IMG/VR virus record: IMGVR_UViG_3300034374_009547 | DNA length: 64,000 bases | Source: a virus | Taxonomy: Duplodnaviria > Caudoviricetes | Reading direction: 5' to 3' (one strand) | Shown: positions 5,198 through 43,604 of the stretch, piece by piece | How the letters are laid out: the number at the start of each line of letters is the position of its first letter | Numbering within the stretch: position 1 is the first letter of the stretch | Made by a program: the position numbers and the translations under genes | The notes under the pieces: generated by a model | The model's input: only the letters and a program-made list of their open reading frames with translations | Told to the model about the DNA's origin: nothing | Databases searched by the model: none

Positions 5198-6305
5198 ATT
5201 TTCTTTTGGGAATTTTACTATCTGCTGAACTAACACAACTTTCAGTCATACAAGGCATCGGTTTATCAAACAATTTAAATCCTGTTTCTATATTGCCAAG
5301 TGGAACGTCATGACAGCTATAACTACGCTTAATACTACCGTCTGGTTCTCTAATAATAATTCCTTGATATCCTGCATTGCAATTCCACCCTTTAAATTTA
5401 TTAAAGTTAAACGCATTAAAACGTTCTGCTTGATCCATATACCATGCTTTACCAGTACTATCTCTAAATTCAACTTGCATATGCCAAGGTACACTTGCAT
5501 CATGCTTGTACATAATGTCAGTAGGTATTTCAAACTTTGGTTTTGGCCTATCTACAAATTTTCTTTTTGATTCTGTGTAGGCTCTTTGTGGCATACCGTT
5601 CCAGAGTCTTTTAAGCATTTCGTCACTATACCCATCCACAACACGGGAGGCCGTTGGATCGGACTGGGGCTTAAGAGTAACATTAATTCCTTGTTCATGG
5701 AAGAATAAGGCGTTTTCCCAATCTCGCTCAAACCATTCAGGAACCATAACCATATTAATTGTAACTTGTACATCGTGTTCTTGACACAGGATTAGTTTAT
5801 CTGCAAAATCCTGCATTTTCTCCTTTGTGTCTAAATGCTCTGTATGAAGACTTGCTGTAATACTTGCTCTATGAAACGGCTTAACACGTTCTACATAATC
5901 CTCAAACCACTTCATTGGGCGTGAGCAGTTTGATGTCATATGGACAGAAGTATAATTAGTATTATCGACATCATCAGCCAAGTGACCAAGTATGTCCAAG
6001 TACCCTGGATGAAAGGTAGGCTCGCCCCCAGACAAACTAAAATGAAAGCTATTAAATCCGTTATCACGTGCTTGCCTCTTTATTTCATCAATTGTTTTAA
6101 GACAGAGTTCAGTCGGTCTGTGGTCTTTTCGGTCACTCCTGGCATAAGGCCAACAATAACTGCAACGATAATTGCAAAATCTACCTAGTAACCAAGATAC
6201 CGTAAAGATATCTCTGTAGAGCAGCGTTCGTTGTCCCACTTGGACAATGTCGTTAAAAGGTATTTTAGTAAAGTCATAGTTTGACCATTTTAAATCTTCT
6301 GTCAT
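5184..6305 (-). CDS. Radical SAM protein, MoaA/viperin-like N-terminus with C-terminal Cys cluster
   Basis: SWLLGRFCNYRCSYC, SGGEPTF, HMTSN, ASLH; C-terminal CNAG..SC..CMTESC. Confidence 0.9.
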   Translation of the reverse strand: MTEDLKWSNYDFTKIPFNDIVQVGQRTLLYRDIFTVSWLLGRFCNYRCSYCWPYARSDRKDHRPTELCLKTIDEIKRQARDNGFNSFHFSLSGGEPTFHPGYLDILGHLADDVDNTNYTSVHMTSNCSRPMKWFEDYVERVKPFHRASITASLHTEHLDTKEKMQDFADKLILCQEHDVQVTINMVMVPEWFERDWENALFFHEQGINVTLKPQSDPTASRVVDGYSDEMLKRLWNGMPQRAYTESKRKFVDRPKPKFEIPTDIMYKHDASVPWHMQVEFRDSTGKAWYMDQAERFNAFNFNKFKGWNCNAGYQGIIIREPDGSIKRSYSCHDVPLGNIETGFKLFDKPMPCMTESCVSSADSKIPKRKYDNV

Positions 6306-6311
6306 ATTAGT

Positions 6312-6340
6312 ATTATATACTCATTTATTGTTTTTGTCAA
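6312..6340 (-). promoter_or_regulatory. Consensus sigma70 promoter TTGACA-N17-TATAAT, -10 box 6 nt before ATG 6305 (leaderless)
   Basis: Forward strand has TGTCAA at 6335-6340 and ATTATA at 6312-6317. No SD between the -10 box and the start codon. Confidence 0.9.
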
Positions 6341-6999
6341 TTATGATATTTTATAAATTTTCCTACTTCCGGTCTAGGCTGATTTGAATGCACACCACGT
6401 TTGTATACAATACCATCAACCGGGCATCTCCAATATCCTTCGGCTTCAGGATTATGATCAAAATTTGGTTTTGTTCCAATACCCAAGCAAACCCATGTTT
6501 GATGATTGTCATAACCAATTTTTTTAGCAAAATAACTAGGGTCAGGAATACAACCACAAAATCCTGCTTGGTATCCTAAATCATATGCAGCATGTACTAG
6601 GTGCATTGCAGCCATTCCTACTTCCATATGTGATTGTGCAACATTGTCTATCATAACTCCAATAGGCCAATCTGTTTCAGGAACTGGTAAGTCTGTAATA
6701 GGTGTAGTAGGAACGGTAAAAGTTATAAGCAATGGTGCTGCCATTTGGGGTTGTTTGTTAAATGGTTTATGATTAGAACTATCTTGATCAATCCAAGTAC
6801 AATATTCATACATCCATAATCTTAAATCTTTATTGCTCCAATTGAAAACATCTATAAAGTATGGATATCTTCCTTGCTTACTAGGCAATGTTGCACATAA
6901 ATCATTCATTAGTTTTTCAACATGTTCTTCGGGTATAACTTCATTCATATTAAAATTGTTAAAGCTGTGCCGTGAATAAATTAATTCATTCCAGTCCAT
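6337..6999 (-). CDS. Nitroreductase-family (FMN-binding) protein
   Basis: N-terminal RHSF, PSKQ, and EVGMAAMHLVHAAYDLGYQAGFCGC, which matches the nitroreductase 'D/E.G.a...l.laA..lGl.t' block. Confidence 0.75.
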   Translation of the reverse strand: MDWNELIYSRHSFNNFNMNEVIPEEHVEKLMNDLCATLPSKQGRYPYFIDVFNWSNKDLRLWMYEYCTWIDQDSSNHKPFNKQPQMAAPLLITFTVPTTPITDLPVPETDWPIGVMIDNVAQSHMEVGMAAMHLVHAAYDLGYQAGFCGCIPDPSYFAKKIGYDNHQTWVCLGIGTKPNFDHNPEAEGYWRCPVDGIVYKRGVHSNQPRPEVGKFIKYHN

Positions 7000-8203: not shown

Positions 8204-8910
8204 TTATAGGATCCTATAACGAGTTCATCTGCATCTGGCGGACCATACTCTTTTAAATTTATATCAAATTCACGTATATCATCAAAATGTTCTAAAATAC
8301 GTTTGGCAAATTGTATGTTATTTTTTTGATTCATATGACATGCTCTTAAATCAGCAAAATCGTCTTTCATAACATTTACCTTAAAAATTTCATGATCTAT
8401 ATCTGCTATCCGTGTCATAGAAGCTTTAATAGGTTCGTTTGCTGTTCTTGTCATAGCAGGAATACACAACTCAACATTTGGCATATTCCTAATTTCTTCA
8501 ACCAACAATTTCCAGTACAAGTTTTGTTCACGTTCGTCACAAATATATTGATAATAAAATTTCAATCCTGGTGCCATCTTTTTTGCTAGTATTGATTTTG
8601 GATCCCAATCTGATCTGTTTTCTCTGCGCATTATATAATGATATCCATAACAATGTTCAATATTGTAGTCAGTTAATTTTGGTAACCATAAACGATTAGG
8701 ATTAGTATAAATTACTATCAATTTATCGTACGCAGCTTCGTGTTGTCTAATTTGGTTGTATGTCCAATACAAACTGCTACCTGCAAATCCATGGTTGCCA
8801 ATATACCAATCTGGACGCATTTCTTGTAAATGCTCTGTCCAACGTTTTTGTTTCGCTTCCAAATCGCCAGTATGTCCTGCAAAGCTATCTCCAAAAACAC
8901 CGATCTTCAT
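8200..8910 (-). CDS. SGNH/GDSL-like hydrolase or acyltransferase
   Basis: KIGVFGDSF (block I), NHGFAGSS (block II), C-terminal RACH. ATG 8910 forms an ATGA overlap with the upstream stop. Confidence 0.65.
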   Translation of the reverse strand: MKIGVFGDSFAGHTGDLEAKQKRWTEHLQEMRPDWYIGNHGFAGSSLYWTYNQIRQHEAAYDKLIVIYTNPNRLWLPKLTDYNIEHCYGYHYIMRRENRSDWDPKSILAKKMAPGLKFYYQYICDEREQNLYWKLLVEEIRNMPNVELCIPAMTRTANEPIKASMTRIADIDHEIFKVNVMKDDFADLRACHMNQKNNIQFAKRILEHFDDIREFDINLKEYGPPDADELVIGSYK

Positions 8911-14645: not shown

Positions 14646-15261
14646 AATGCTTCTCCCAAATTTTTTTTGGTACAAAGTAAAATTTAAAAAAATTAGATGG
14701 TGTTTCAACTTTTTGATATTCAAGTTCTGTAAATACTTCATCCATTGCTGTTTCGTAATGATGAACTTGAATTATAGGAGTATGTTTTTTAATAATTTCT
14801 TTAGCACCTTGTAATACAAAAATATCATTCCATTCTGTATCTATTTTTATATAATCAATTTTAAAATCATATTCAACAAATTCGTTGTCTAACGTGTTGC
14901 ATTCAACTTCATATGTCGTAAAACTATGATTGTCTGGAATGTTATCTAATAAACTTGAACAACCTGCATTTTCCAAGTCCTCATTAAATTTTGCAGTACC
15001 TACAAAATTGCTAATTGCTTTGTTTTCTAAGAAAATATTATTTAAATAATACGTCTGTGTTTCAGTTTGTTTTTGTTTTTCTAAAATTTTATTGAATAGC
15101 GTTTTATTGGGCTCATATGCATACACCATTTCGCACACATCGTTATAACGTTGAGCATAACTATAATCATATAACCCTACATCAATAATAGTATGAGGAT
15201 CTATACCAAATTTATAAAATAAGTAAGTTGAATAATGGTGATGCATCCAATGTCTACGCAT
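14638..15261 (-). CDS. FkbM-like SAM-dependent methyltransferase
   Basis: IIDVGL, VYAYEPN, NKAIS, IDYIKIDTE, PIIQV. Confidence 0.8.
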   Translation of the reverse strand: MRRHWMHHHYSTYLFYKFGIDPHTIIDVGLYDYSYAQRYNDVCEMVYAYEPNKTLFNKILEKQKQTETQTYYLNNIFLENKAISNFVGTAKFNEDLENAGCSSLLDNIPDNHSFTTYEVECNTLDNEFVEYDFKIDYIKIDTEWNDIFVLQGAKEIIKKHTPIIQVHHYETAMDEVFTELEYQKVETPSNFFKFYFVPKKIWEKHYA

Positions 15262-16450
15262 AATATTTTTCCTTTAAATAATCAAAGTCTTCATAGTAAT
15301 CAAACAAGCAAGTTTTGTTAATTTTGTCTTGAATGCGCATCCATGCAACAAATTGATCACTATAATCAATATCAGCAGGTTGTTGCAGCCAATCTATTAC
15401 CTTTTGTAAGTTAGCGCCGTTTTGATTTTCAACCCATTCTTGGTAATAGATGTTATCAAACTTATAGTGATCATAGTGCAAATCAATTTTTGATAATTTA
15501 TTTACAAGCTGCTGTTTTTGCCATTCGGGTAAATTTTTAATATTCATCATTTTAGGATATTGTACAAAACTTACATGAAATCTACTGCCTAAATCAGTAA
15601 ACTCTTGCATAATTTTTGGAATGTTAAAAACGTTTAGTACATTTACGGTGCAAGTAGCATGTAAATCAAGTGTTCTATTTTCTATTCTGTCTTGCATAGC
15701 CGATTCTATAGCAAACCAATTATTTTTTAATTTATTGTAATCACCATTTGTTCTTACATAACTAAAAGTTTTTTCGTCTGCATCTACACTAACTCTACAT
15801 GTAACTTTTTTAAATTTTTTCCAGTAATCGATCACATCATCAATAATATGTAAATTAGTATTATATTCAAGCCATATATTATGTTCATGTCCACGTAAAC
15901 TTTGTAACAAATCTTTATGCTTAGGGTGCATCAGAGGTTCGCCGCCAGTTATCTTTATACGTTTTAGTGTAGGAGCAATTGTTTTAAATTCTTCTATAAT
16001 ATTATCTGGCAATTCTGTAATACTCAATTTTGTACTACTATCATCAAATTTTTTCATTTCTTCAAGCAAATTTTTATTTTGTTTAATTTGCTTCATCCAT
16101 TGACTGCTATATTTAGGAGAACAATGTCTGCATTGTAAATTACACAAATTTCCAAAACGTATTTCTACTTCTTGTATATTTGGATTATCATAATCAACTG
16201 AATATTCTTTTAAGGCTGTTTGTCTAGTGCTTAATACACCATTTTTTTCCGTTTCCCAACAACTACGACATCCTGCTGGTTGTTTATTGTTTCGATGTTG
16301 TTCTCTAAATTTTTGCCAAGCAGAATTATGCCATATTTCAAGCAAACCTTTTTGTGTGTAATCTCCATGGACTTCTAAACAACGCCAACAACTTGTAACA
16401 CTTGTATCTGGCTTGATGTTCATATGCACAAACGGTAATGGACATGTCAT
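15254..16450 (-). CDS. N-terminal Twitch radical SAM protein
   Basis: TCPLPF..SCWRC..GCRSCW; FGNLCNLQCRHC; ITGGEPL; YNTN. Confidence 0.92.
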   Translation of the reverse strand: MTCPLPFVHMNIKPDTSVTSCWRCLEVHGDYTQKGLLEIWHNSAWQKFREQHRNNKQPAGCRSCWETEKNGVLSTRQTALKEYSVDYDNPNIQEVEIRFGNLCNLQCRHCSPKYSSQWMKQIKQNKNLLEEMKKFDDSSTKLSITELPDNIIEEFKTIAPTLKRIKITGGEPLMHPKHKDLLQSLRGHEHNIWLEYNTNLHIIDDVIDYWKKFKKVTCRVSVDADEKTFSYVRTNGDYNKLKNNWFAIESAMQDRIENRTLDLHATCTVNVLNVFNIPKIMQEFTDLGSRFHVSFVQYPKMMNIKNLPEWQKQQLVNKLSKIDLHYDHYKFDNIYYQEWVENQNGANLQKVIDWLQQPADIDYSDQFVAWMRIQDKINKTCLFDYYEDFDYLKEKYYA

Positions 16451-16463
16451 ATAAATACTTATA
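16450..16463. promoter_or_regulatory. Overlapping divergent T4-late-like boxes: TATAAATA (+, 16450-16457) and TATAAGTA (-, 16456-16463)
   Basis: The 32-bp divergent spacer between ATG 16450 (-) and ATG 16483 (+) has an exact T4 late consensus on + and a one-mismatch copy on -. Confidence 0.55.
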
Positions 16464-16482
16464 ATATGCGTAGTTTATTGTT

Positions 16483-17181
16483 ATGAAAATTGGTATCATC
16501 GGAACTAGTCACAGCGAAGGCAATATTCAATATACAGGTAGCGTAAAAAGAACATTACCTTTTGAACAGCATTTAAAAAATGCAATGCCTCAACACGAGT
16601 TTATAAATTTGGCAAAAGCAGGTAGAGGTAGTGAAAGATATTTAGATTGTATTGTAACTGCAAAAGAAAAATATAATGTAGATGCTATACTAATAGAGTA
16701 CGCAGCAGATAGATCAAGTAATCATTATTGGTATAACGAATCTGCAATTGATAAACTAAAAGATGCAAAAACAATTGCTAGTGAACTGATTGAAGATACT
16801 CATTGTTATATACGTAGCCTACAAGGTATTAAAGAAGATAACGAAGGAATATTAAAAGATATTCCTCAAAAGAAATTTGAAATATTTAAAGAAGTAAATT
16901 CAATAATTTTTAGAGAAAGCAAATATGTTATTACTATGGGGATAAAAAATGTTTATCAATCACTACAACTTTGTAAACTATTAGATATAAAATTTATACC
17001 ATGGGAGTACACCTACACAGAAATTCCAATAAAAAGAGAATATGTAAAAACAATGTTGCAGTATATAAAAGAAAATAATTTACAAGCCGAATTATGTGAT
17101 GGTTATCATAGTAATGACAAAGTATATAATCTAGCAGCACACAACTTTTTTAAGCCGTTGGTAGAACAATGTATAAAATAG
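16483..17181 (+). CDS. SGNH-like protein (G-T-S variant)
   Basis: KIGIIGTSHSEG, NLAKAGRGSE, C-terminal CDGYH. Confidence 0.65.
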   Translation: MKIGIIGTSHSEGNIQYTGSVKRTLPFEQHLKNAMPQHEFINLAKAGRGSERYLDCIVTAKEKYNVDAILIEYAADRSSNHYWYNESAIDKLKDAKTIASELIEDTHCYIRSLQGIKEDNEGILKDIPQKKFEIFKEVNSIIFRESKYVITMGIKNVYQSLQLCKLLDIKFIPWEYTYTEIPIKREYVKTMLQYIKENNLQAELCDGYHSNDKVYNLAAHNFFKPLVEQCIK

Positions 17182-30021: not shown

Positions 30022-30032
30022 ATTGTACTTAC

Positions 30033-31307: not shown

Positions 31308-32131
31308 TACAAATTGTTACTACCCCATTCAAACATTTCAAACATTATTTTATTTTCAACTTCTTTACTATTAGGAATAGTAATTTCAAATTTTTGAAAT
31401 TGATATTTGACGTTTAAAGGTATGCTAACTTTTTCTCCATCTAAATCTTGTGTGTGTTTTTGTAACCTTTCTAAAAATAAATCGATCCTAAAGCGGTCTT
31501 CTGGTACATCACTATTCCATCTTAAATATCCGTTAGGATCCCATCTATTAAAGTTACCATGTTTTACCATACATTGTAGTCCATGATGTTTTTCTTTTCC
31601 AACAAAAAATGCATATAATTTTTTATCTGCATATATGTCCTGTATGTCTTGTAAACTTTTTATTGTTTTTAAAACTTTGCCATTATCATTAAAAAATTGT
31701 GGAACTACTCTAATTACACAACAAGGCTTGTTAAGCCAAATTAATGAGTTCATAAGTGTGTTACCAGGATGAACTCTACTAGGCCAAATGTATACTGGAT
31801 AAACATTTACAGAATTCTTATACAAATCACAGCATAATTCAATTATTTGGGTTGCACGCCGTTGACATTCGTCAGCTACAAAACATTTAAATAATTTCAT
31901 GTCTGTATAACCTAAATACTTGTGTGGCGGATCGAGCCATTCTTTTCCTTTTACATACTTGTGCTGATCATACCATTCATGTGTTTTATAATATACAAAT
32001 TCTACTTTAGATTGCTCAAACATAAATTTGTATTGCTTCTTTGTAGATTTTTTTACTTTTGCAGAATCTATTCCATTTTCTACATTGTAAGGATGAATAA
32101 ATTTTTCAAAGTCAATGTCAAACTGGTTCAT
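31307..32131 (-). CDS. Hypothetical protein
   Basis: Fills the gap between coupled genes; start placed at ATG 32131; no family recognised. Confidence 0.7.
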   Translation of the reverse strand: MNQFDIDFEKFIHPYNVENGIDSAKVKKSTKKQYKFMFEQSKVEFVYYKTHEWYDQHKYVKGKEWLDPPHKYLGYTDMKLFKCFVADECQRRATQIIELCCDLYKNSVNVYPVYIWPSRVHPGNTLMNSLIWLNKPCCVIRVVPQFFNDNGKVLKTIKSLQDIQDIYADKKLYAFFVGKEKHHGLQCMVKHGNFNRWDPNGYLRWNSDVPEDRFRIDLFLERLQKHTQDLDGEKVSIPLNVKYQFQKFEITIPNSKEVENKIMFEMFEWGSNNL

Positions 32132-33176
32132 AATTAATCTCGTTATGATATGCTTTGTTTTTAGCACAAGTACGAATACATCTTGTAAAATGCAACGGGT
32201 GTGTTGGTTGCCAACTTGCTTCTAAAAGGTGTTCAAACCATTTGTGTTTTTGTATTTGTTCAATAGTATGATGTTTCAAACTATTCCAATTTGGTTCAAA
32301 TTGATTTAGTTTATATAAAATATCTTCTTTATTTTTAAATGCGCTATCCCACAAAAAACAACAAGGCCACATGGTCTGATCACTTGCAATAAAAATTTCT
32401 TGCTCATGTATATATTTACAAACAATGCTGTTTACAATGTTTTGTGTTTTTTCCTTGTCTACAACATTAGATTTATATTCAGTAATAAATTTATCTAGAT
32501 CTTTTACAATATCTTTTTTGCTATGTTCTTTTTTACCTGTAGTTGTAATTTTTTGTTCAACTTTTTTATTTTTTTTGCCTAGTTGAGATATCCATTGATG
32601 ATAACTATTTCTCATACCTGTACGTGTTGCAAATTCAAAACCTAAAATATTAGCGTGTGCTTTGGCTTTTGCTAATTCATATTCGTTATGATCAAATACA
32701 ATAAAAATCCAAGTAGCATGTTTATCAGGTGCAGTTTGCGCAAAGGCATTAATATTACGTTCAATAGTTTTCCACTTGGTGTTAACTCTATAAATATGAT
32801 TTGTTTCTTCATATCCATCTATACAAAAATGAATATGCAATTTTCCTGGGTGCTTTGTTGCTATTGAGCCTAATTCGTTCCACCATTTACCTGTGTTGTA
32901 TCCGCCATTGGTGCTAACTTCACAATAACCACCTAAATCGGTAAGATACTTAACCATATCTAAAAAATCTTGATTTACAATAGGATCTCCTAAAACACCG
33001 CAAAACTTAAATTCTACTCCTGTATAATCATCAACAGGAAAAATACGTTGCAAATCTTGCAACGTAAATGAATTTATTTGCAACAATTCTTTGTTAAGTG
33101 TTCTAGCACAACCTGGACATGCTGCATTACAATCACTGGTAATTTCTAGTTCAACTTTTTTGATAGAAGTATTCAT
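32118..33176 (-). CDS. Radical SAM protein with C-terminal Twitch-like Cys cluster
   Basis: EITSDCNAACPGCAR; FCGVLGDP; STNGG; DGYEETNHIYR; CKY..WPCC..CIRTC. Confidence 0.9.
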   Translation of the reverse strand: MNTSIKKVELEITSDCNAACPGCARTLNKELLQINSFTLQDLQRIFPVDDYTGVEFKFCGVLGDPIVNQDFLDMVKYLTDLGGYCEVSTNGGYNTGKWWNELGSIATKHPGKLHIHFCIDGYEETNHIYRVNTKWKTIERNINAFAQTAPDKHATWIFIVFDHNEYELAKAKAHANILGFEFATRTGMRNSYHQWISQLGKKNKKVEQKITTTGKKEHSKKDIVKDLDKFITEYKSNVVDKEKTQNIVNSIVCKYIHEQEIFIASDQTMWPCCFLWDSAFKNKEDILYKLNQFEPNWNSLKHHTIEQIQKHKWFEHLLEASWQPTHPLHFTRCIRTCAKNKAYHNEINYEPV

Positions 33177-34251
33177 ATATTTCTTTGTTTAAATCTTTCA
33201 ATTGTTCTTTTTGGAATTTGTCTAAAGAATTATTAAATTCTATAAACTTATTTTTTAATGATGTATTATCTTCTTCTTGTAATATAATTATTTTATTTGC
33301 TTGTTGTGAAATTACATCATTTGATTTAAGCATCCAATTTTTTCTTGTATCAATATCAATCATATCAATTGATAAATGCTTAGGATATCTAACTTTATTA
33401 AAATTTAACCATAGTTTGTTTTCATTACAATAGGTTATTAAATCAGATAATTTGTTTATGTTGTACACACTTACAGAACAATGAACACTATTAATTACAT
33501 CTTTTGTAGCAGCCCATTGTTTTAAATTTGTGTCTATTATATTCCAATTTACGCCCCATCTACATAATTTAGAAAGATCGCCTACAGCATCAATACTAAA
33601 TTCTATATGTAATTTTTTACAAGCAAGTAATTTTTCTAATAATTTTTTATTAGGAAATACACTACCATTTGTTGTTATATAAATTTGTAAATTTTTGTAA
33701 TCAGTTTTTTGTTGTAAGTATTCTATAAACCATTCTAGTTTTTTACTATAAAATGGTTCGCCTCCTAAAATTTTTATTCTTTCTAATTTACTAATATCGC
33801 TATTTGTTATGATTTGTTTAACATCATACTTGGGATATGCAACACTATAGTCGTCTATGTGATTTATTTCTTTTTTTAATTGATGTGCTGAATTCCATTT
33901 ACTGCTTAACATAGGAGTGCAAATTCTACACATCATATTACATGTGTAATCAAGAGCAATTTTTAAACTGCGTAATTCTATAGTTTCTCTATCTTTACGT
34001 ATATGATTTTCAATTTGCCTATCACTTACGCCATTGATGTTTTCAATATTCCAACACACATCACAAATAGAATCTTTTTTATTTTCAAGCATAGTATTTC
34101 TTACCCGTTGGTATGTTTTACTATGCAACAAATCGTTTAAATTTATAATATTTTTTATGTGTAAATTTTCTTCATCTGGCATTATGTGGCAACATGGACT
34201 TGCAAAAGGTCTTGAAAAATCAATTTCTTCATATGCTAATATGCATTTCAC
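33151..34251 (-). CDS. N-terminal Twitch radical SAM protein
   Basis: KCILAY..SPCC..CDVCW; LDYTCNMMCRIC; LGGEPF; TTNGS. GTG start overlaps the upstream stop. Confidence 0.88.
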   Translation of the reverse strand: MKCILAYEEIDFSRPFASPCCHIMPDEENLHIKNIINLNDLLHSKTYQRVRNTMLENKKDSICDVCWNIENINGVSDRQIENHIRKDRETIELRSLKIALDYTCNMMCRICTPMLSSKWNSAHQLKKEINHIDDYSVAYPKYDVKQIITNSDISKLERIKILGGEPFYSKKLEWFIEYLQQKTDYKNLQIYITTNGSVFPNKKLLEKLLACKKLHIEFSIDAVGDLSKLCRWGVNWNIIDTNLKQWAATKDVINSVHCSVSVYNINKLSDLITYCNENKLWLNFNKVRYPKHLSIDMIDIDTRKNWMLKSNDVISQQANKIIILQEEDNTSLKNKFIEFNNSLDKFQKEQLKDLNKEIYEYFYQKS

Positions 34252-35330
34252 TTAAATTGCTCCGCAAATGGATCAAATTCTGAACCACACTTTTGAGCAC
34301 AAACTCCTAGTTTACCATCTTTGACGCTAGGAAGATTCCAACTATCTGTAATACCTTTTAACAACTTTCCGTTGACAACGTCCTTAATATCATTTTCAAT
34401 TATGTCAATGCCTTCTTTTCCTCCAGCATTGTCAATATGATCCCAAATTTGTTCAACTCTAGGATCAGGATGCCACCATTTATACATACGTCCAGCAGTC
34501 CAGCAGCATGGCATTAATAGTCCTTCAGCAGTGATAAACACACTACCTTCTTCTGCTACTTTACATTTGATACTGCACTTATCAAAGTATTCTTTCATGC
34601 TTCCGTATGATTTCTCAATTTCTTTTTGTTTTAACAATGCTAAATTGTTATTTTTTTCGTCTTTAGGTTTTTCAAGTTTAGCAGTTTCATTGCCTTTTCT
34701 ATCAACTGCTTGATGAGATTCTTTTGGTACAATATTGCTAGTAACAAATCTTCCGCTTTTCTTTTTAATAAATCGTTCACAACCCCACGCATTTGCTAAT
34801 GCTTCTGCTTCTTCTACTTGATGTTCGTTATGTTGAAAAATAAGAAAATCCCAACGTGCTCTGCCGCCTGCATCAATAAACGCCCGCATATTGCGTTCTA
34901 CATTGTTCCAGACAACATTCTGCCTGTATAAATGATTAGTGTCACTAAGACCGTCCACACTAAAAATAACAGCACCCATTCTACCAAAGACTTGGGCAAG
35001 TTCACGCCACCATGTTTCATCTTTTGCTCCTGCGTTTGTGTTCATCGAGAGCCAAATGTCTGCATTATGTTCTCTAAAGTAACGGAATATTTCTAAAGTA
35101 TCTCGTGCTACAATAGGATCACCTAAGTTACCACACATGAACATTGTGTTAAGTTGTGCAATAAATTTTGGTTTGAAGATACGTTTGCAATCTTCTAAAC
35201 TTAGTTCAGCATTTGTAATGTGTGGATTATCAGCACCACCGTTCATATTACGATCGCACATAGGACATGCTGCTTGACAACGCTGTGTAACTTCTAAATG
35301 AACTACTTTTATATCTTCATACTTGTACAT
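34248..35330 (-). CDS. Radical SAM protein with C-terminal Twitch-like Cys cluster
   Basis: EVTQRCQAACPMCDR; MCGNLGDP; NTNAG; DGLSDTNHLYR; CKV..MPCCW..CAQKC. Confidence 0.9.
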   Translation of the reverse strand: MYKYEDIKVVHLEVTQRCQAACPMCDRNMNGGADNPHITNAELSLEDCKRIFKPKFIAQLNTMFMCGNLGDPIVARDTLEIFRYFREHNADIWLSMNTNAGAKDETWWRELAQVFGRMGAVIFSVDGLSDTNHLYRQNVVWNNVERNMRAFIDAGGRARWDFLIFQHNEHQVEEAEALANAWGCERFIKKKSGRFVTSNIVPKESHQAVDRKGNETAKLEKPKDEKNNNLALLKQKEIEKSYGSMKEYFDKCSIKCKVAEEGSVFITAEGLLMPCCWTAGRMYKWWHPDPRVEQIWDHIDNAGGKEGIDIIENDIKDVVNGKLLKGITDSWNLPSVKDGKLGVCAQKCGSEFDPFAEQFK

Positions 35331-35336
35331 TGTTTT

Positions 35337-35364
35337 ATTATAACACCTTTTTAGTTTTTGTCAA
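35337..35364 (-). promoter_or_regulatory. sigma70 promoter TTGACA-N16-TATAAT, -10 box 6 nt before ATG 35330 (leaderless)
   Basis: Forward TGTCAA at 35359-35364 (inside the last codons of the upstream gene) and ATTATA at 35337-35342. Confidence 0.8.
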
Positions 35365-35917
35365 TAATCCAAAAATCATTATCAACAAATAATTTTTTAT
35401 CAACAGAAAATAAGTCAACATCTTTTTTATTATGTTCATTAGTATAGCCAGTTCCACAAATAACACTATCTGCAAAAAATTCTAGTTGTTTTAACAAAAC
35501 TGGCAGATGTTTTTGATTATCTAAAAATACAAAATCAAAAGTGTTTTTTTCATTTTCTATAAAATCCCATATATCTTGTTTAATTACAAAACAAGGGTTT
35601 TGATGTTGATCAATCAACCAGCAAAATATATTGTAATGTTCATATGCATCATTAACAATTTGTTTATCTTGTTTTGCTTTTTCATAATAAAATTTATGTT
35701 CTTTAATTTTTTCTATTCTATATGGTTCTGTATTAAATTCAAATTTATCTAAAGCATAAACTATAGTGTTGGATACACTATCAAGTATATTCCAAGTACT
35801 ACTACCTAATCCAACTCCTACTTCAAGTATTTTTTTTGGATTATATTTTTTAATTGCGTTAGAAAGATTAAAGTCAATTGACGGATCTTTAAAACTAGGA
35901 ATATCATTATGCTTCAT
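35351..35917 (-). CDS. Class I SAM-dependent methyltransferase-like protein
   Basis: ILEVGVGLGSS (motif I), YALDKF, FDFVFLD. Confidence 0.75.
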   Translation of the reverse strand: MKHNDIPSFKDPSIDFNLSNAIKKYNPKKILEVGVGLGSSTWNILDSVSNTIVYALDKFEFNTEPYRIEKIKEHKFYYEKAKQDKQIVNDAYEHYNIFCWLIDQHQNPCFVIKQDIWDFIENEKNTFDFVFLDNQKHLPVLLKQLEFFADSVICGTGYTNEHNKKDVDLFSVDKKLFVDNDFWIIDKN

Positions 35918-36734
35918 TATACTTCCTGTCTATAAATTGAGATTCATATGGTTTGTAATATATGCTACATTTTCTTTTACAAACTTCTAACGGATTATCT
36001 ATTATATCTGAGAACCTTTTTGCATCAAAATTCTTATCCCAATCTTGCCATTCTTTTTTATATCTTGTACTGCCTATCCAACAACAAGGCATAACTTTGC
36101 CTTCGGCGCTAACATATATACTGCGTTCTTTTTGTACTTTACATTCTACACCTTTAGGAACTTTTGGTAAAGATTTACCCCTAGTTGTTTCTTTGGTTAC
36201 AAACTCTTTAAATCCTAACATGTCTGCCAATGCTTCGGCGTCCTTGACTTGATGCTTGTTATGATCAAATATTAAATAATCCCATCTTGCATATCCACCA
36301 TTGGTAATATAAGTTCGTGCATTTTCAATAACTTTGTTCCAAACTACATTTTTTCTATACAAATGATTTGTATCATTAAGTCCATCTATACTGAATGTAA
36401 CTACATCAACAACTTTTGCTATTTTCTCCCACCATGCTGTATCTCTTGCACCGCCGTTGGTTACCATGCGTAAATGTATATTAGGATTTATACTTTTAAA
36501 ATATTCAAATATTTCCAACGTATCATGAGCAATAATAGGATCTCCAAAATTGCCACACATGTACATAACTTCTAATTGTTTAATAAAACTTTGAGAAAAT
36601 AATTTTTTGCAGTCTTCTAAATTTAATTCTGCTTGCATGATATTTATACCTGTCCTTCCACACTGAGGACAGGCTGCTTGACAACGTTCAGTAACTTCTA
36701 AATGTAATGTTTGGATTTCGTTAATTTTGTACAT
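35907..36734 (-). CDS. Radical SAM protein, compact paralogue of 34248
   Basis: EVTERCQAACPQCGR; MCGNFGDP; VTNGG; DGLNDTNHLYR; CKV..MPCCW..CKRKC. Confidence 0.9.
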   Translation of the reverse strand: MYKINEIQTLHLEVTERCQAACPQCGRTGINIMQAELNLEDCKKLFSQSFIKQLEVMYMCGNFGDPIIAHDTLEIFEYFKSINPNIHLRMVTNGGARDTAWWEKIAKVVDVVTFSIDGLNDTNHLYRKNVVWNKVIENARTYITNGGYARWDYLIFDHNKHQVKDAEALADMLGFKEFVTKETTRGKSLPKVPKGVECKVQKERSIYVSAEGKVMPCCWIGSTRYKKEWQDWDKNFDAKRFSDIIDNPLEVCKRKCSIYYKPYESQFIDRKYNEA

Positions 36735-37794
36735 TCCAGAAATTTTGTTTTCTTAATTTATCTCTTATTTTTGTTTGCTCAACAAACATATCATACAAAT
36801 GTTGGTCAAACGGTTTTTTTGTAGCAATAACACTAGGCATATCTTTGTGCTTATTTGGATCTAAGTTGTAATTTTTACCTTGCACAAAAGGATACATGTA
36901 ATTAGGTGTAATTAAAGGTGTCATATGAAACTCTGTATCGGCAAAATAATCAATTATGTTATTTAACTTAAAAATATTATATGCACTAACAACACAAACA
37001 ACATTCATGTTACTATTATCTTTTATAGTATTATATGCTTTTTCAAAGTTTTTCCATTTACCTGGCCATCTGATATAATCGTAAACATCTTCAATTCCGT
37101 CGCAACTTATACTAATGTGTAAATCTTTAAACTTGTTTAACAACTTAAAATGCTTTTGTTTTAATAACAAGCCGTTGGTAATAAATTTTAAACTTATTTC
37201 TTTTTTATTTTTTAATGATTCTAAAAATTCAAAAATTTTAGGATTTGCAAAAGGTTCGCCGCCTGTAAATTTTAATTCTTTTACATTTTGCTTTTGAATT
37301 TGATCAAAAGCATTTTGTTCCCATGTGCCAACATTTGCAGGAAATCTATATTCTTCTCTAAGCCAATTTTCATTAGGATTATTTTTAACTTCTGCTTCTA
37401 AAACACTGCTTATTCCAGGTGCACACATACGGCAGCCTAAATTACACAAACTACTCATTTTCATATCAAAGTAAAATGGAGTAATTTTTGTTGAACCAGT
37501 TTTTGTAGTATTAGTTTTTATTTCTTCAATGTAATCTTGAAATTTGTAATTGACACTTTGACGTCTGCTAAATTTTCCTAAATCTTCATGGTTCCAGCAT
37601 GTAGTGCATTCTTTTCTACGAACTCCATTTAACAAATCTTTTCGTAAATCATCAAATTTACTATTGTTGTTTTCTATTGTATCAGACCAGTGAGCATCGT
37701 TACTAGGATTGTATACGCAACAAGGTCGATAAGCGCCAGTACCTGTAATACTACTGGCACCTATCCAAGGTAAGACACAGAATGTGTCAGACAT
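36721..37794 (-). CDS. N-terminal Twitch radical SAM protein
   Basis: FCVLPW..RPCC..CTTCW; MSSLCNLGCRMC; FTGGEPF; ITNG. Confidence 0.92.
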   Translation of the reverse strand: MSDTFCVLPWIGASSITGTGAYRPCCVYNPSNDAHWSDTIENNNSKFDDLRKDLLNGVRRKECTTCWNHEDLGKFSRRQSVNYKFQDYIEEIKTNTTKTGSTKITPFYFDMKMSSLCNLGCRMCAPGISSVLEAEVKNNPNENWLREEYRFPANVGTWEQNAFDQIQKQNVKELKFTGGEPFANPKIFEFLESLKNKKEISLKFITNGLLLKQKHFKLLNKFKDLHISISCDGIEDVYDYIRWPGKWKNFEKAYNTIKDNSNMNVVCVVSAYNIFKLNNIIDYFADTEFHMTPLITPNYMYPFVQGKNYNLDPNKHKDMPSVIATKKPFDQHLYDMFVEQTKIRDKLRKQNFWNVQN

Positions 37795-38725
37795 AACTTA
37801 CATATGCATCCAAATCTGGTTTTGTGTCGTGATCACTTCTTGGAATTGGAACCATTTTTTGATAATACGGACAGAAATATTCTTCTGCTGGATCTTTGTA
37901 ACCTATACCGATTGTCATTTCTGGAAAAAAGCCAATTGCTTCCTTTATTAGATCAGGATAATTTACACACCGACATAATCCAGTATATAAACCTTTATCT
38001 GCTGCACTATAAATTATAGTAGCAGTTGCAATTCCTACATCCATATAAAAATCCGTCATGCTATAATCATCACTAATTACTCTAGGTTTAAAGAATAATA
38101 AGTATGGAGCAAGCATTTGAGGGTTGTGTCTAGCCGTTTCACTTTTACTTGCAGCGCCGGCTCTATAAATTTTGTTACGTTTTTCTTCATTGTCGTTTCT
38201 GTATATCTCAATACTATAACGTGTGACACGCTGCTTGCTAGGTGAAAAATTATGCACATCACTAATAATATCTTTTATCATATCAATTGGCGGAACTGCG
38301 TCTGTCCAATTATAAGTGTTAACTCTTTGTTGTGCTGCACGATGCCATGTATTAGGCTGTTCAATCGGTCCTCTTTCAATAATAGTTTTTAAAGTATTTT
38401 TCAAATCACTAATTTGATTAGAAAAATCTTCTGAGCACATTAGTTGATTTTGTATAAAATCTACTATCCAATCGTATACTGCAAATTCAACTTCGGTACT
38501 AACAATTTGTCTTTTGCCTCTTACCCAAAATTTGTTACCAATGTATATTGTATTAGTATTAGTGTTGTTTTCAACATCATGAATAAATGCATCAATAATG
38601 TATCCTAAATCTCTAAAACATTTTTCTGGTTCTTGCGTTCGCTCAGGATGATGTTGTTTCATATAAGATACAGCATTGTTTAATAAACGCTTTTTATTTT
38701 CTATTAGGATACTTAGATCACTCAT
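37787..38725 (-). CDS. Nitroreductase-family protein with an N-terminal phycobiliprotein-like helical module
   Basis: C-terminal half has PSKQ and DVGIATATIIYSAADKGLYTGLC. N-terminal ~120 aa contain KCFRDLGYII. Confidence 0.65.
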   Translation of the reverse strand: MSDLSILIENKKRLLNNAVSYMKQHHPERTQEPEKCFRDLGYIIDAFIHDVENNTNTNTIYIGNKFWVRGKRQIVSTEVEFAVYDWIVDFIQNQLMCSEDFSNQISDLKNTLKTIIERGPIEQPNTWHRAAQQRVNTYNWTDAVPPIDMIKDIISDVHNFSPSKQRVTRYSIEIYRNDNEEKRNKIYRAGAASKSETARHNPQMLAPYLLFFKPRVISDDYSMTDFYMDVGIATATIIYSAADKGLYTGLCRCVNYPDLIKEAIGFFPEMTIGIGYKDPAEEYFCPYYQKMVPIPRSDHDTKPDLDAYVSYV

Positions 38726-38726
38726 T

Positions 38727-38951
38727 TTAATTCTCCATTACCAATTTAACATCTTTACCAGGGCCTACTTTGCTTGGCAAATCTCCGTATTGTTCTACAT
38801 ACCATTCAATAACAGCTTTATACCAATTTTGACTATTATGGTGAGCTTTTTTATTAAACTGCCATATGTTATTGTTTGTTGCTTGCATTGTACTCAATGC
38901 TCTTGCACTTTCCGTTTGTAATTGTCTTACACTTAGATCATCTAATTCCAA
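38727..38951 (-). CDS. Small hypothetical protein (74 aa)
   Basis: Fills the gap between 38938 and 38725 exactly, overlapping the upstream stop; ATG start. Confidence 0.75.
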   Translation of the reverse strand: MELDDLSVRQLQTESARALSTMQATNNNIWQFNKKAHHNSQNWYKAVIEWYVEQYGDLPSKVGPGKDVKLVMEN

Positions 38952-39984
38952 TTTTCATAAACCTTGTATATTTTCCTAAATTTAATTCGCCTTCATATAA
39001 AGTTTGTGCCATAGGCGAATACTTGCTAAACTCTTCTAGTGTGTTGCAGCAATTAACATGCTCTGGTATTTCAAAATAATTATTACCTTGCAAAATACAA
39101 ATTGTTCCTTCTGGAATTTTATGATACCATACATGATAATTTTCAATGTGCTCGGTGCTTGTGTTTATAACGGTGTTAGGTGTTTCCCAGATTGTTTCTT
39201 GGGTTCCGTCAAATTTATTTACATCGTAAATATGTCCATCAAATCTAATATCATGTATATCTTGTATGCAATGTTTATATGTCCAATTGTTTAAAATATA
39301 AGGCTTGTTAATAATGTTTGCAATTTTTTCGCAAGACTCATCTACATCAAATGTTGTAATTTTATCAATTTTTAATTTTGCATCTAACATCATAGTTGCT
39401 AAAATACCATACCAGCCTGCACATAAAAAAACTATTCCTAAATCTAAATTTAATTTTTTAAGTTCATCTATAAGCCAGAGTTTACTTTGTAATTGACCTC
39501 TACTTAAACAATCTTTATCAAACTCTATATCGTTTGTAATTAAATTTTTTAGTGCATTTACAAGAGTTGAATCTGAATATTCTGCAAGTAATCTAAACAA
39601 ACTAAAAAGATTATCGTCTAAAACAAGTTTACGTATATCATCATTACCAGCACATTTAAAAATTGAATTTTCATCTTTTTCTATAATAGCAAGTTTTAAA
39701 CTATCGTTTCCTGCTAGTAATCTAAACAAACTATGAATATTTTGCTCAAGAATTGCTTTCCTTAAATCTTCAATATCGCCAATAATTCTTTTGTTAGTTA
39801 CAAGCCTAAATATACTATGCCAATTTTCTTCTAAAATAGCACGCCGTAACTCATCCTTTTCAACTAACTCAAATAAACTAGTGTAATCTTTATCTATGTA
39901 TAATCTACGTAATTTACTAAAGCGAGAATCGTCAGCATGAATTAATTCAAATCTATCTAATATTTCAAAAATTTCCAGCATCAA
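38938..39984 (-). CDS. Methyltransferase-like protein with N-terminal helical repeats
   Basis: FLCAGWYG (Gly-rich motif I-like), TFDVD, INTSTEH; five ~21-aa repeats at the N-terminus. Confidence 0.6.
   Translation of the reverse strand: MMLEIFEILDRFELIHADDSRFSKLRRLYIDKDYTSLFELVEKDELRRAILEENWHSIFRLVTNKRIIGDIEDLRKAILEQNIHSLFRLLAGNDSLKLAIIEKDENSIFKCAGNDDIRKLVLDDNLFSLFRLLAEYSDSTLVNALKNLITNDIEFDKDCLSRGQLQSKLWLIDELKKLNLDLGIVFLCAGWYGILATMMLDAKLKIDKITTFDVDESCEKIANIINKPYILNNWTYKHCIQDIHDIRFDGHIYDVNKFDGTQETIWETPNTVINTSTEHIENYHVWYHKIPEGTICILQGNNYFEIPEHVNCCNTLEEFSKYSPMAQTLYEGELNLGKYTRFMKIGIR
39586..39918 (-). repeat. Five degenerate ~21-aa helical repeats, roughly (D/E)-L-R-x-A-I-L-E-x-N-x-x-S-(L/I)-F-R-L
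   Basis: KLRRLYIDKDYTSLFEL / ELRRAILEENWHSIFRL / DLRKAILEQNIHSLFRL / SLKLAIIEKDENSIFKC / DIRKLVLDDNLFSLFRL. Confidence 0.85.
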
Positions 39985-41023
39985 ATTTTTCTTTCAACCA
40001 ATCAAAATCATTTATCTTTTTAAGCTCGTCTGGTTTACCTTGATTTCTAGCACCATATGCTGCACCTGCTTTAGCACCAATAATTGCATACTCTGCAAAT
40101 TCTGCATCATCTTCTGTGTATGTGCACCAAGTTCTTAATCTACGATTTGTTTCTTGATCCTTTTGCCTATCAATTACTTTACTACTTAATTTAGCACATT
40201 CTCTAAATGCACCTTTCCATGTTTCAAATGGACTAGTGTTAAATGCAGTAATGTTTGAAATTTTTTGCACAGCAACAAATTTATTACTAATGCTTGTTGT
40301 CATATCAGGCTTGTTTACATCCATATCAAGCGTTTGTTGCCTTGGCAACAACTTAACACCGCCGTAACCATAAACTAATCCATTTACTGGATTTTGTGAT
40401 CTCCATACGTGAACTGCATCTTTATTATGTGTTTCAGGAACAAAGGTGTCAAATTTAAAATAGTCTGTAAGTTGGGCATCGCCGTCGACAACAAAAAACA
40501 TCTTAGATTGACACAATTTTGCTGCTTCAATATGCGCTTGGTGAATACCTTTTACTCCATGTACACGTTTTGCATGAGGTGCTTTTTCGAGAAGTTTTTC
40601 AAAATTTTCATCTGCATTAGGTTCTTTATAGCTAATAAACACAACATCATACTGATCAATTTTTGGCCTGCTTGCAACAACAGGAACAAACTTTTTATTA
40701 ATGTAATATCTTGCTTGTAATTCGCCTGGCCCGTGATGACTATCTTTCGGCATTAAACACACGCCATCATAATATTCTTCTTTATAATATAATCTTTCAT
40801 TCAAAAATACATGTGTGTATTCTTTACTATACTCATCTACTTTGTAATCAAATTTCCAATCATCAACCAAATCAACGTCATTATACACAATCCATAAATG
40901 TTTTGTAAGTGCTTTTTGTTTTGCTTCTGGCACCGTTTCTACACAGCGAGCCATAGGAAATCTTTCTTTTAAGGCTTTGTAGCCACTCCAATGTTTTTGA
41001 CCTATAAAAAATATATCATACAT
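39965..41023 (-). CDS. GT-A-fold glycosyltransferase-like protein with a degenerate N-terminal duplicate domain
   Basis: YDVVFISY.EPN, RVHGVKG, FFVVDGD (DxD), YGYGGVKL, WKGAFRE. The N-terminal part repeats YDIFF..LWIVYND. True start is ATG 41023, not 41179. Confidence 0.65.
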   Translation of the reverse strand: MYDIFFIGQKHWSGYKALKERFPMARCVETVPEAKQKALTKHLWIVYNDVDLVDDWKFDYKVDEYSKEYTHVFLNERLYYKEEYYDGVCLMPKDSHHGPGELQARYYINKKFVPVVASRPKIDQYDVVFISYKEPNADENFEKLLEKAPHAKRVHGVKGIHQAHIEAAKLCQSKMFFVVDGDAQLTDYFKFDTFVPETHNKDAVHVWRSQNPVNGLVYGYGGVKLLPRQQTLDMDVNKPDMTTSISNKFVAVQKISNITAFNTSPFETWKGAFRECAKLSSKVIDRQKDQETNRRLRTWCTYTEDDAEFAEYAIIGAKAGAAYGARNQGKPDELKKINDFDWLKEKFDAGNF

Positions 41024-41029
41024 ACTATA

Positions 41030-41058
41030 ATTATATGATAATATAACTAGCTTGTCAA
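41030..41058 (-). promoter_or_regulatory. Consensus sigma70 promoter TTGACA-N17-TATAAT, -10 box 6 nt before ATG 41023 (leaderless)
   Basis: Forward TGTCAA at 41053-41058 and ATTATA at 41030-41035. Heads the ~22.7-kb minus-strand run ending at 18302. Confidence 0.9.
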
Positions 41059-41068
41059 GTTTAGAATT

Positions 41069-41090
41069 GATAAATAGTTTGTACGGAGGA
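41069..41090 (+). promoter_or_regulatory. T4-late-like GATAAATA box plus GGAGG Shine-Dalgarno for the fibre gene
   Basis: GATAAATA at 41069-41076; GGAGG at 41085-41089; ATG at 41096. Confidence 0.65.
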
Positions 41091-41095
41091 TTACC

Positions 41096-42523
41096 ATGAC
41101 AATTATACCAGGTGACGCATATAGAATTGATGTTGTAGGCGCTGATGAACAAGTTATCGTTGACAGCTGGACAAGCCAAGTTAAAGGCAATGTTGTAACA
41201 CGTGACGGTGTTTTACAAGTTGACACAACAAACGGAAAAATATATGGTCCATTAGTAGGAGATATTGAAGATATTTCCGGTAACACTATCTTTAATAACG
41301 ATCTACGTTTATTTACTACTGATATTAAAGGTGATGTACGTAACACAAATGGTAATATTGTTTTAAACAGCGAACAAGCACTACTGGTAGGCAACATGCA
41401 AGGTAATATGTATGACAGCGAAGGTGTTGTCATGATTAACCATACTACAAAATCAATAGATGCAACAACAATTGTAGCTGATAGTATTACTGGTACGTTT
41501 TACGGAACTCTTAACACAACAGGTACAATTAGAGGTAACTTAATTGGTAATGTTGTTGGCGATGTTACTGGAGAAGTTACTGGAAATACAACCGGACATC
41601 ACTTTGGTAATGTAGACGGTAATGTTACGGGTGATGTTACTGGTAACGTTACCGGAGATTTGTACGGACAAATTATGGCTGTACAAAGAGATGAAACAGA
41701 TCCAACCGTACTGATTGCTTACAACGAACATGCAGCTCATAGACAATGGGAAATGAGAGGCGGTATTTCTCATATTGATAATGCTGGAAAGGGACCTATT
41801 TTAGGAATTGGTGCTACACGCACAGATGCATATTTAAAAGCCGATATAGTTGCATATGATGGCACTCCACAGCTAACTTTAACACCAACAGAAGACTACG
41901 GTCTAGAAGCAGACATTGTAAAAAGTAATTACTTTGGTGCTGTACAAGGCAGGCTAATGGATGGAACAACTGACATTATGACATGGGTTGGTAGCACAAC
42001 TTCGATATATGCTAATAACGGTGTACTACAACTTGGTATGGATTACACAAGTGATATTGAGTTTAATGCAGAAAGTATTGTTAAAAACTTCAATATATCT
42101 GACGGAGATGCAACTGAATTAGTCAACGCTTTTAGAGGAACACCAGAAGCAAAAACAGCATTACAAACATCAGATCCAATGCTTATGGTTGCAGCTCTTG
42201 GTTATAATGGTGCAGGATTTGTTGATGCAGGACATTTTGGATTCTTTGTTGACAGAAACACTGCTCCTACTTCAACTGATAGTAGTGTAAAAACAGGGTT
42301 TAGTGTTGCACTAGGAACAGGATCTGCAACTCCTATAGCAAATCAAAGCATGAATTTAGAATTTAATAGTGCAGGTGTTTTAGAAGTTCCTGTTTTTAAA
42401 GCCCGTGGTACAAATTTTGCAGCAAGAGATAGTATGACTGCTGAAGCAGGAATGATTATTTTCAATACAAGTAATAATAAATTCCAAGGATACACAGGTT
42501 CTGCGTGGGTTGACTTACACTAA
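41096..42523 (+). CDS. Tail-fibre-like virion protein with G-x-V-T repeats
   Basis: Tetrapeptide-periodic Gly segment; C-terminus AGMIIFNTSNNKFQGYTGSAWVDLH, homologous to the 2..1348 product. Confidence 0.75.
   Translation: MTIIPGDAYRIDVVGADEQVIVDSWTSQVKGNVVTRDGVLQVDTTNGKIYGPLVGDIEDISGNTIFNNDLRLFTTDIKGDVRNTNGNIVLNSEQALLVGNMQGNMYDSEGVVMINHTTKSIDATTIVADSITGTFYGTLNTTGTIRGNLIGNVVGDVTGEVTGNTTGHHFGNVDGNVTGDVTGNVTGDLYGQIMAVQRDETDPTVLIAYNEHAAHRQWEMRGGISHIDNAGKGPILGIGATRTDAYLKADIVAYDGTPQLTLTPTEDYGLEADIVKSNYFGAVQGRLMDGTTDIMTWVGSTTSIYANNGVLQLGMDYTSDIEFNAESIVKNFNISDGDATELVNAFRGTPEAKTALQTSDPMLMVAALGYNGAGFVDAGHFGFFVDRNTAPTSTDSSVKTGFSVALGTGSATPIANQSMNLEFNSAGVLEVPVFKARGTNFAARDSMTAEAGMIIFNTSNNKFQGYTGSAWVDLH
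41492..41673 (+). repeat. ~15 tandem G-x-(V/L/I/T)-x tetrapeptide units (12-nt period)
   Basis: GTFYGTLNTTGTIRGNLIGNVVGDVTGEVTGNTTGHHFGNVDGNVTGDVTGNVTGDLYGQI. A shorter copy (GNLTGDVTGNVSG) lies near 55470-55510 on the minus strand. Confidence 0.9.
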
Positions 42524-42537
42524 AATTGTGTTATAAT
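42510..42537 (+). promoter_or_regulatory. sigma70 promoter TTGACT-N16-TATAAT with extended -10 (TGn), 5 nt before ATG 42543 (leaderless)
   Basis: TTGACT at 42510-42515 inside the V-D-L codons of the fibre gene; TG at 42529-42530; TATAAT at 42532-42537. Confidence 0.75.
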
Positions 42538-42542
42538 AAAGC

Positions 42543-43604
42543 ATGAAAATTTACATAGATGGTGAACAAATCTCTGAACAATGGATTAGCGATTATACAC
42601 TGAGCAATCCTGTAGATTGTTTTAGTGATAAGCCTGACTGGGAACAGAATGTATTAAAACTACTACACAACTGGTACTGGCAAAGTGGATATAGTTATGG
42701 CTATAGAGGCGATAAATTTTTAAATCTAAGTACAAGTGGCACTACAGGATTTCCACAACATATCGGTCATAGTAAAGAAACTATTGAGCAAGCAGTAAAT
42801 GCAAATATAAAAATTTTAAATTTAGAAAAAAATAGTAAAATACTTAGTTACTATTCACCTCGTGGTATTGCATTCAGTGTATTAAGTGTATATCTCGCTC
42901 TTAAATTAAATTGTGAACTTTACATTGAAACTTTTAAAGGAATTGATTATGTAAATCGTATACATGATATCCGTCCTACACATACGCTGTTGTTACCTAA
43001 TGTTTGGAAAACTTTATACAAACACAAAAAATGGCAGACATTAGATTACAGCAGTGTAAACACACTTATTACAGGAAGTGATTTTACACCAATAGGAATG
43101 CTAGACGAATTACGTGAACATGGCCCAAATAAAGTTTACAATGTGTATGGTAGCACAGAAGTACCTCCTATTGTTTTATACAGCGAAGAAGAAAATACTT
43201 ATACAGCAGAAAGTATTGCACCAGGTGCAGAACTAGATATTGTAAATAATCAAATATGCTGTAAATGGAGTAGTCAACCTAATATATGGGTAAGTGGTGA
43301 TTGTGTACAAGGTGATAGAAATCGTTTTACACTTAACGGACGAATGCCAAATATGTTTAAGCAAGATACAATTAGAGTGTATCCAGAACAAATAGAAAAA
43401 GCAGCAGTAGCAGCAGGCGCAGAACTTGCATTATGTCGGCAAGTAGGAAATCAATGCGTGGTCCATTACACCGGACATATAAAATATATGGCGGAATTTG
43501 TAGAAGAATTTAGATATATTCCTCGCTTTAGATTGCGAGCAGTAAATGAAATAAAAATTGACGATAACTTGAAAAAGATTATAAGGACACAAACTTTTGT
43601 ATAG
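42543..43604 (+). CDS. Short ANL-family adenylating enzyme (acyl-CoA-ligase-like)
   Basis: STSGTTGFP (A3 P-loop), NVYGSTE (A5), SGD (A7), NGR (A8), VYPEQIE. At 353 aa it is well short of typical ANL enzymes. Confidence 0.75.
   Translation: MKIYIDGEQISEQWISDYTLSNPVDCFSDKPDWEQNVLKLLHNWYWQSGYSYGYRGDKFLNLSTSGTTGFPQHIGHSKETIEQAVNANIKILNLEKNSKILSYYSPRGIAFSVLSVYLALKLNCELYIETFKGIDYVNRIHDIRPTHTLLLPNVWKTLYKHKKWQTLDYSSVNTLITGSDFTPIGMLDELREHGPNKVYNVYGSTEVPPIVLYSEEENTYTAESIAPGAELDIVNNQICCKWSSQPNIWVSGDCVQGDRNRFTLNGRMPNMFKQDTIRVYPEQIEKAAVAAGAELALCRQVGNQCVVHYTGHIKYMAEFVEEFRYIPRFRLRAVNEIKIDDNLKKIIRTQTFV

Follow-up and report, generated by a model that had tools for sequence, protein, structure and literature searches.

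The stretch of DNA analysed here, the 64,000-nucleotide IMG/VR virus record IMGVR_UViG_3300034374_009547 (33% G+C; referred to at its full length as the window), comes from an uncultured T4-like water phage and contains four enzyme genes whose ATG lies only 5–6 nt past the −10 box of a consensus sigma70-type promoter, a layout that would yield leaderless mRNAs. The PHROGs matches in the window include tail-fibre and virion families, and a 999-aa protein gave matches in myoviruses of Synechococcus and Prochlorococcus, S-SSM7 and Syn33 among them. A megablast search of positions 44000–64000 found no match among cultured phages, and a tblastn search with the radical SAM protein encoded from 6305 likewise found no match. 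Positions 41023 to 4355 of the minus strand form a co-directional gene run of about 36 kb in which radical SAM enzymes predominate. This run includes about 20 radical SAM genes, in many of which the SPASM domain precedes the radical SAM core (a permuted order), together with FkbM methyltransferases, an Asn-synthase-like gene and a nitroreductase.

The four promoter-ATG units, named here after the first base of their ATG, were confirmed both by direct reading and by pattern search, three on the minus strand and one on the plus strand, and the positions and spacings reported for them in an earlier note on this DNA stand. The 6305 unit consists of a TTGACA-N17-TATAAT promoter (6312–6340, minus strand; TTGACA at 6340–6335, TATAAT at 6317–6312), the six nucleotides ACTAAT and the ATG (6305–6303) of a radical SAM gene of 373 aa (5184–6305), and its TTGACA contains the TGA stop (6339–6337) of an upstream nitroreductase-like gene (6337–6999). 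The 35330 unit has a TTGACA-N16-(TG)n-TATAAT promoter with an extended −10 (35337–35364, minus strand; TTGACA at 35364–35359, TATAAT at 35342–35337), followed by AAAACA and the ATG (35330–35328) of a radical SAM gene of 360 aa (34248–35330), and its spacer holds the stop codon of the upstream gene (35353–35351). The 41023 unit lies in a divergent intergenic region of 72 nt and has a TTGACA-N17-TATAAT promoter (41030–41058, minus strand; TTGACA at 41058–41053, TATAAT at 41035–41030), followed by TATAGT and the ATG (41023–41021) of a putative GT-A glycosyltransferase-like gene of 352 aa (39965–41023). The 42543 unit, on the plus strand, has a TTGACT-N16-(TG)n-TATAAT promoter with an extended −10 (42510–42537; TTGACT at 42510–42515, TATAAT at 42532–42537), followed by the five nucleotides AAAGC and the ATG (42543–42545) of an AMP-binding enzyme gene of 353 aa (42543–43604), and its −35 box falls in the last codons of gene 41096–42523 (stop 42521–42523). 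All four genes are predicted to be leaderless, and all four promoters match the sigma70 consensus at 12/12 or 11/12 positions. Three of the four are internal, with the −35 box overlapping or adjoining the stop of a co-directional upstream gene and with intergenic gaps of 19–31 nt; no terminator-like hairpin was found at any of the four sites. The absence of a Shine–Dalgarno (SD) motif, which the earlier note had claimed for all four, was borne out for 6305, 41023 and 42543, where no SD-like 4-mer precedes the ATG; the 35330 gene departs from it, with an SD-like AAAGGTG (35344–35350) that lies 13 nt before its ATG, inside the promoter spacer and upstream of the predicted +1.

The enzyme-like nature of all four products, which belong to a large biosynthetic cluster, was upheld. 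The 6305 and 35330 genes were assigned to radical SAM and the 42543 gene to AMP-binding by Pfam, and neither the 41023 protein nor its longer relatives belongs to a Pfam family. For the 41023 protein, a PDB sequence search returned nothing and the Atlas returned viral hypothetical clusters only; Foldseek, run with the predicted model, placed it with GT-A glycosyltransferases at a probability of 1.0, with TM-scores of only about 0.3, and an invariant DxD (D180, D182) was observed. The product is thus probably a GT-A glycosyltransferase-like enzyme, as judged from the model and the conserved motif. The family was found in viruses only, and its relatives of 644–969 aa share the N-terminal MYDI/MFDI motif.

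The layout exceeds what base composition would produce. Pattern counts were compared with those in 100 shuffles, and sites below 11 of 12 promoter matches were ignored because loose scans (≥9/12) gave counts equal to the shuffles, so that only matches of 11–12 of 12 were informative. The complete pattern TTGACW-N16/17-TATAAT-N5/6-ATG occurs four times in the window versus 0.00 in the shuffles, and the perfect TTGACA-N16-18-TATAAT promoter occurs five times versus 0.22 expected, a count that none of the 100 shuffles reached. TATAAT-N6-ATG by itself was not enriched in the window (5 versus 3.4 expected), so the signal resides in the combination of promoter and ATG. Twelve sites in the window have at most one mismatch, and four of these abut an ATG. 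The comparison was extended to 259 loci (1.75 Mb of related DNA) taken from IMG/VR with the four proteins as queries, in which the distance from a strong promoter to the ATG of the first long open reading frame peaks at 5–6 nt (58 of 200 distinct sites), the next peak containing 8 sites. This peak stems almost wholly from two conserved families, those of the 6305 and 41023 genes.

Several lines of evidence were obtained on whether the promoter-adjacent ATGs are used as starts. For 6305, 35330 and 42543, the ATG is the first ATG, GTG or TTG past the preceding in-frame stop. At 41023 the frame stays open as far as a TTG (41179) located within the divergent gene, and the ATG at 41023 was taken as the true start because all homologues begin at MYDI. 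The N-termini are conserved from residue 2, as M-x-E-D-L-K-W in the 6305 family and as M-Y-D-I, with invariant Y2 and D3, in the 41023 family. The AlphaFold model of the 41023 protein has a mean predicted local distance difference test score (pLDDT) of 86.8 and begins its first strand at residues 3–7 (pLDDT about 95), and the Pfam radical SAM domain of the 35330 product starts at residue 13. On this evidence of alignment and modelling, the promoter-adjacent ATGs are the real protein starts.

Differential conservation was observed for the four units among the related loci. Relatives of the 6305 gene are 84–93% identical, and the promoter, counted in distinct upstream regions with at most two mismatches to consensus, is present in 37 of 60 of them. 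These 37 promoters leave 5 nt (20 cases), 6 nt (16) or 7 nt (1) between the −10 box and the ATG, never more, and the letters of the spacer and discriminator vary widely. The upstream neighbour genes also vary between relatives, which indicates that the promoter travels with the gene. The 6305 homologues lacking the promoter are operon-internal and are often preceded by SD-like stretches rich in purines or slightly extended at the N-terminus. In the 41023 family, TTGAC[AT]-N17-TATAAT-N5/6-ATG is kept in 23 distinct units, at sequence identities of 47–71% (loci L001–L012, L028, L032 and L064–L067) and also in the longer forms of 644–969 aa. For the 6305 and 41023 genes, the layout in relatives therefore appears to reflect selection and not chance, and conservation in related phages, a check suggested in the earlier note, was found for these two and not for the other two. 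The promoter of the 35330 gene is shared with a single relative (L143), about 40 other distinct relatives being without it. Eight relatives of the 42543 gene have the same promoter followed by a leader of about 22 nt with TAGGAG or GGGAG and then ATG or GTG, and the remaining relatives are without the promoter. Alignment with L081, L095, L102 and L103 places a 19-nt gap in the window (at 42538–42542) exactly on this SD leader, so the leaderless spacing at 42543 is a recent, lineage-specific loss of the SD leader in an otherwise intact gene. Such a loss would represent a natural change of a gene from SD-led to leaderless.

The position of the start codon relative to the −10 box also fits transcription beginning at the ATG, and the earlier proposal that +1 falls on or next to its A was sustained by geometry (N5/N6). 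In an N6 unit, the A of the start codon occupies position seven counted from the end of the −10 box, where RNA polymerase of the E. coli type usually initiates. Three further features that were not selected for in the search were observed in these units. In 64 of 71 N5/N6 units a pyrimidine (T or C) directly precedes the ATG, versus 26 of 55 among all genes of the window, in keeping with the preference of transcription starts for a pyrimidine (−1) followed by a purine (+1). About half of the N5/N6 units carry an extended −10 TG. The start codons lying 5–6 nt from a −10 box across the relatives are ATG in 58 cases, GTG in none and TTG in 4, and leaderless translation requires AUG. SD-led homologues of the 42543 and 35330 genes start with GTG in some cases.

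Leaderless transcription from promoters of the host-sigma70 type is accordingly regarded as the best reading of the four sites, with a probability of roughly 0.7 on the sequence comparisons given above. RNA polymerase would initiate at the A of the ATG or at the base next to it; the resulting mRNAs would have neither a leader nor a ribosome-binding site, and a 70S ribosome carrying initiator tRNA would bind the 5'-terminal AUG directly. By analogy with T4-type phages, the promoters would be early. The 41023 promoter heads the minus-strand run, which may behave as an operon. Each of the three internal promoters would supply the gene behind it, and the genes downstream of that, with a separate leaderless message, probably alongside read-through RNA.

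Several observations weigh against this reading. The three internal promoters have no upstream terminator, so that the protein could come mainly from read-through RNA. The N5 spacing, shared by 42543 and 20 of the 37 promoters in the 6305 family, places the A at the less favoured sixth position, where starts may be mixed. The leaderless layout of 42543 is not conserved in its relatives, and that of 35330 is nearly confined to the window. The 5' folding energy (first 30 or 45 nt) of the four genes is no different from that of other genes. The promoter rules of the host and its ability to translate leaderless mRNA are assumed. Nine freshwater or aquatic metatranscriptome runs contain 7–44% of the words of 34200–43700, and four of them, aligned to 30201–50200, gave low-depth contigs of 200–900 nt among the matches listed; these data are assembled contigs only, with DNA carry-over possible, and such contigs cannot give 5' ends, strand or level and are silent on the four predicted starts.

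Among the alternatives, the one that survives best holds that the promoters are real and came to abut the ATG as a by-product when the genome was compacted or promoter-plus-gene cassettes were shuffled. Most of the protein would then be translated from polycistronic read-through RNA, with initiation either coupled to the upstream gene or directed by a weak SD in the spacer. The stop codons that three of the four −35 boxes overlap or adjoin, the narrow gaps and the missing terminators agree with it, as do the many homologues that are promoterless and lie within operons. Spacer motifs point the same way: 11 of the 37 promoter units in the 6305 family, which are not phylogenetically independent, contain an SD-like AGG[AT]G or AAGG 13–15 nt upstream of the ATG (background 5.7%), as does the 35330 unit of the window. 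Compaction, however, does not account for a distance held at 5–7 nt in 37 diverged promoters, nor for the pyrimidine before the ATG in 90% of units, and a spacing of 13–15 nt is long for SD function. Moreover, the 72-nt divergent region leaves room for a leader, yet the relatives of the 41023 gene keep N6. The by-product explanation is therefore considered unlikely. The SD-like box itself (AAGGTG or AAGGAG) was seen directly before the extended −10 in the spacers of L180–L259 and at 35344–35350 of the window. In the 41023 family it occurs in 0 of 23 units, and in the window the 41023 gene starts its transcription unit.

Where the box is present, it hints at a second, SD-led mode of initiation on read-through RNA, with a spacing that is long. 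Building on this, a broader and quite speculative proposal can be formulated within leaderless transcription, namely that conserved AUG-fused early promoters, placed before the glycosyltransferase-like gene at the head of the cluster and the radical SAM gene near its end across many uncultured T4-like jumbo phages of aquatic habitats, let their messages escape SD-directed control (for example RegB-type cleavage at GGAG or RegA-type repression), and that the spacer box of the internal copies permits the second, SD-led mode. This would constitute a dual-mode initiation site not described so far, and we hold the proposal as a whole to be rather improbable.

The function suggested in the earlier note, in which the translation of enzyme genes is separated from SD-dependent initiation and continues under stress, is very doubtful. 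In its favour, the four leaderless-type genes all encode enzymes, two leadered promoters serve SD-bearing genes located beside tail-fibre genes, and the retention of the layout by two gene families points to some advantage. The supposed division between leaderless enzyme genes and SD-led structural genes was not recovered, as about 35 of 55 genes in the window have SD-like motifs, among them the majority of the some 20 genes for radical SAM and accessory enzymes. Within the enzyme cluster, initiation at most enzyme genes is SD-led or coupled, and the leaderless type accounts for only 4 of about 45 genes. A separated enzyme translation is also at odds with the three internal promoters lacking a terminator and with the recent deletion that produced the 42543 spacing. 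The idea of stress-active leaderless translation was founded on the MazF specialised-ribosome model, which other laboratories did not reproduce according to a 2022 review (PMC9031893). Finally, the suggestion that the promoter-adjacent ATGs are not real starts or match by chance, which could draw on the commonness of TATAAT-N6-ATG in an AT-rich window, is extremely improbable in view of the excess of the full pattern, of ATGs that are the first starts of long open reading frames with N-termini conserved from residue 2, and of the strand and Pfam domain that begin at residues 3 and 13 of the 41023 and 35330 products.

The leaderless mechanism itself is already known. In lambda PRM-cI, about 6 nt lie between the −10 box and the ATG, as in the units described here. 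The genes lambda cI, P2 gene V, 434 cI and Tn1721 tetR likewise give AUG-first mRNAs that have no SD and need a 5'-terminal AUG, but genes of the PRM-cI type are single regulatory (repressor) genes with weak, regulated promoters, whereas the present units combine full-consensus promoters with biosynthetic enzymes, three of them within operons of a lytic T4-like phage, and have a layout conserved in many uncultured relatives; the leaderless mRNA of lambda cI is discussed in the 2022 review (PMC9031893). In Deinococcus-Thermus, leaderless genes have the −10 directly before the open reading frame, and the −35, where present, raises expression (Zhong et al. 2025, PMC12340547). In Deinococcus this type comprises about one third of all genes, in contrast to the handful in the present phage, whose other genes are mostly SD-led. 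The promoter-early stem-loops (PeSLs) of the T4-type phages RB49 and phi1 are cassettes that contain a stem-loop terminator and close with an SD ahead of the start codon (Arbiol et al. 2010, PMC2839356). Like the PeSLs, the units described here place a consensus sigma70 promoter right after the upstream stop (6337, 35351 and 42521) and, in the 6305 family, occur in varied neighbourhoods; unlike them, they have no stem-loop or terminator and no SD, the −10-to-ATG distance being 5–6 nt, and they precede large enzymes instead of small ORFans. Of the two jumbo phages compared, phiKZ has no leaderless transcripts and AR9 only long leaders. Within the paper library searched, no report of leaderless genes in cyanophages or their relatives was found; two matches for the terms leaderless and cyanophage were rejected, as they represented a software citation only.

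If 5'-end mapping bears the predicted starts out, lytic T4-like phages of natural waters would routinely use leaderless early messages for particular biosynthetic enzymes. For annotation, the promoter-adjacent ATGs are the true starts, and gene callers that rely on the SD may misplace them. The layout also offers a hint on timing, in that the host polymerase probably transcribes at least part of the radical SAM cluster early, whereas neighbouring genes carry T4-type late motifs.

Other promoters of the window provide comparators. A perfect consensus promoter at 49059–49087 (minus strand) has a normal leader and a GGAGG SD for gene 48689–49036. Both it and the promoter whose −35 box lies at 50181 are leadered and have strong SDs, which indicates that the phage uses both leadered and leaderless designs. 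Another perfect consensus promoter (21533–21560, minus strand) is located within the 3' end of gene 21499–22815, 30 nt before the ATG at 21502 of a radical SAM gene (20510–21502), without a clear SD.

A second class of motif was also observed. The match GATAAATA to the T4-type late promoter motif (41069–41076, plus strand) is located 19 nt before the ATG of the divergent gene 41096–42523, which has a GGAGG SD. ATAAATA occurs in 8 copies in the AT-rich 64-kb window, four of which lie 19–25 nt before gene starts (genes 16483, 41096, 51124 and 56684), the start-proximal copies being those at 16450–16457 and 41069–41076 and those upstream of 52650 and of 57292. TATAAATA is depleted in the window (4 versus 15.6 expected). 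The ATAAATA sites fit T4-type late promoters, which we presume from what is known of T4 and the cyanomyoviruses, and the motif looks avoided elsewhere. This distribution suggests, by analogy, that the sigma70-type sites are an early promoter class. The 42543 gene would accordingly have its own early leaderless message in addition to its position behind the late gene 41096.

Two minor observations concern the late-type sites. In X2, X3 and X4, which belong to three studies, a metatranscriptome contig begins at 41097–41100 with no loose end, among the matches listed; these starts, just inside the divergent late-type gene, are a weak hint of a transcript boundary. At 16451–16482, only 32 nt separate genes 15254–16450 (minus strand) and 16483–17181 (plus strand), both of which lack an SD. 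The minus-strand ATG is preceded at 10 nt by a weak TTTTCA-N17-TATTAT and the plus-strand ATG at 25 nt by TATAAATA; the leaders of both genes are probably very short.

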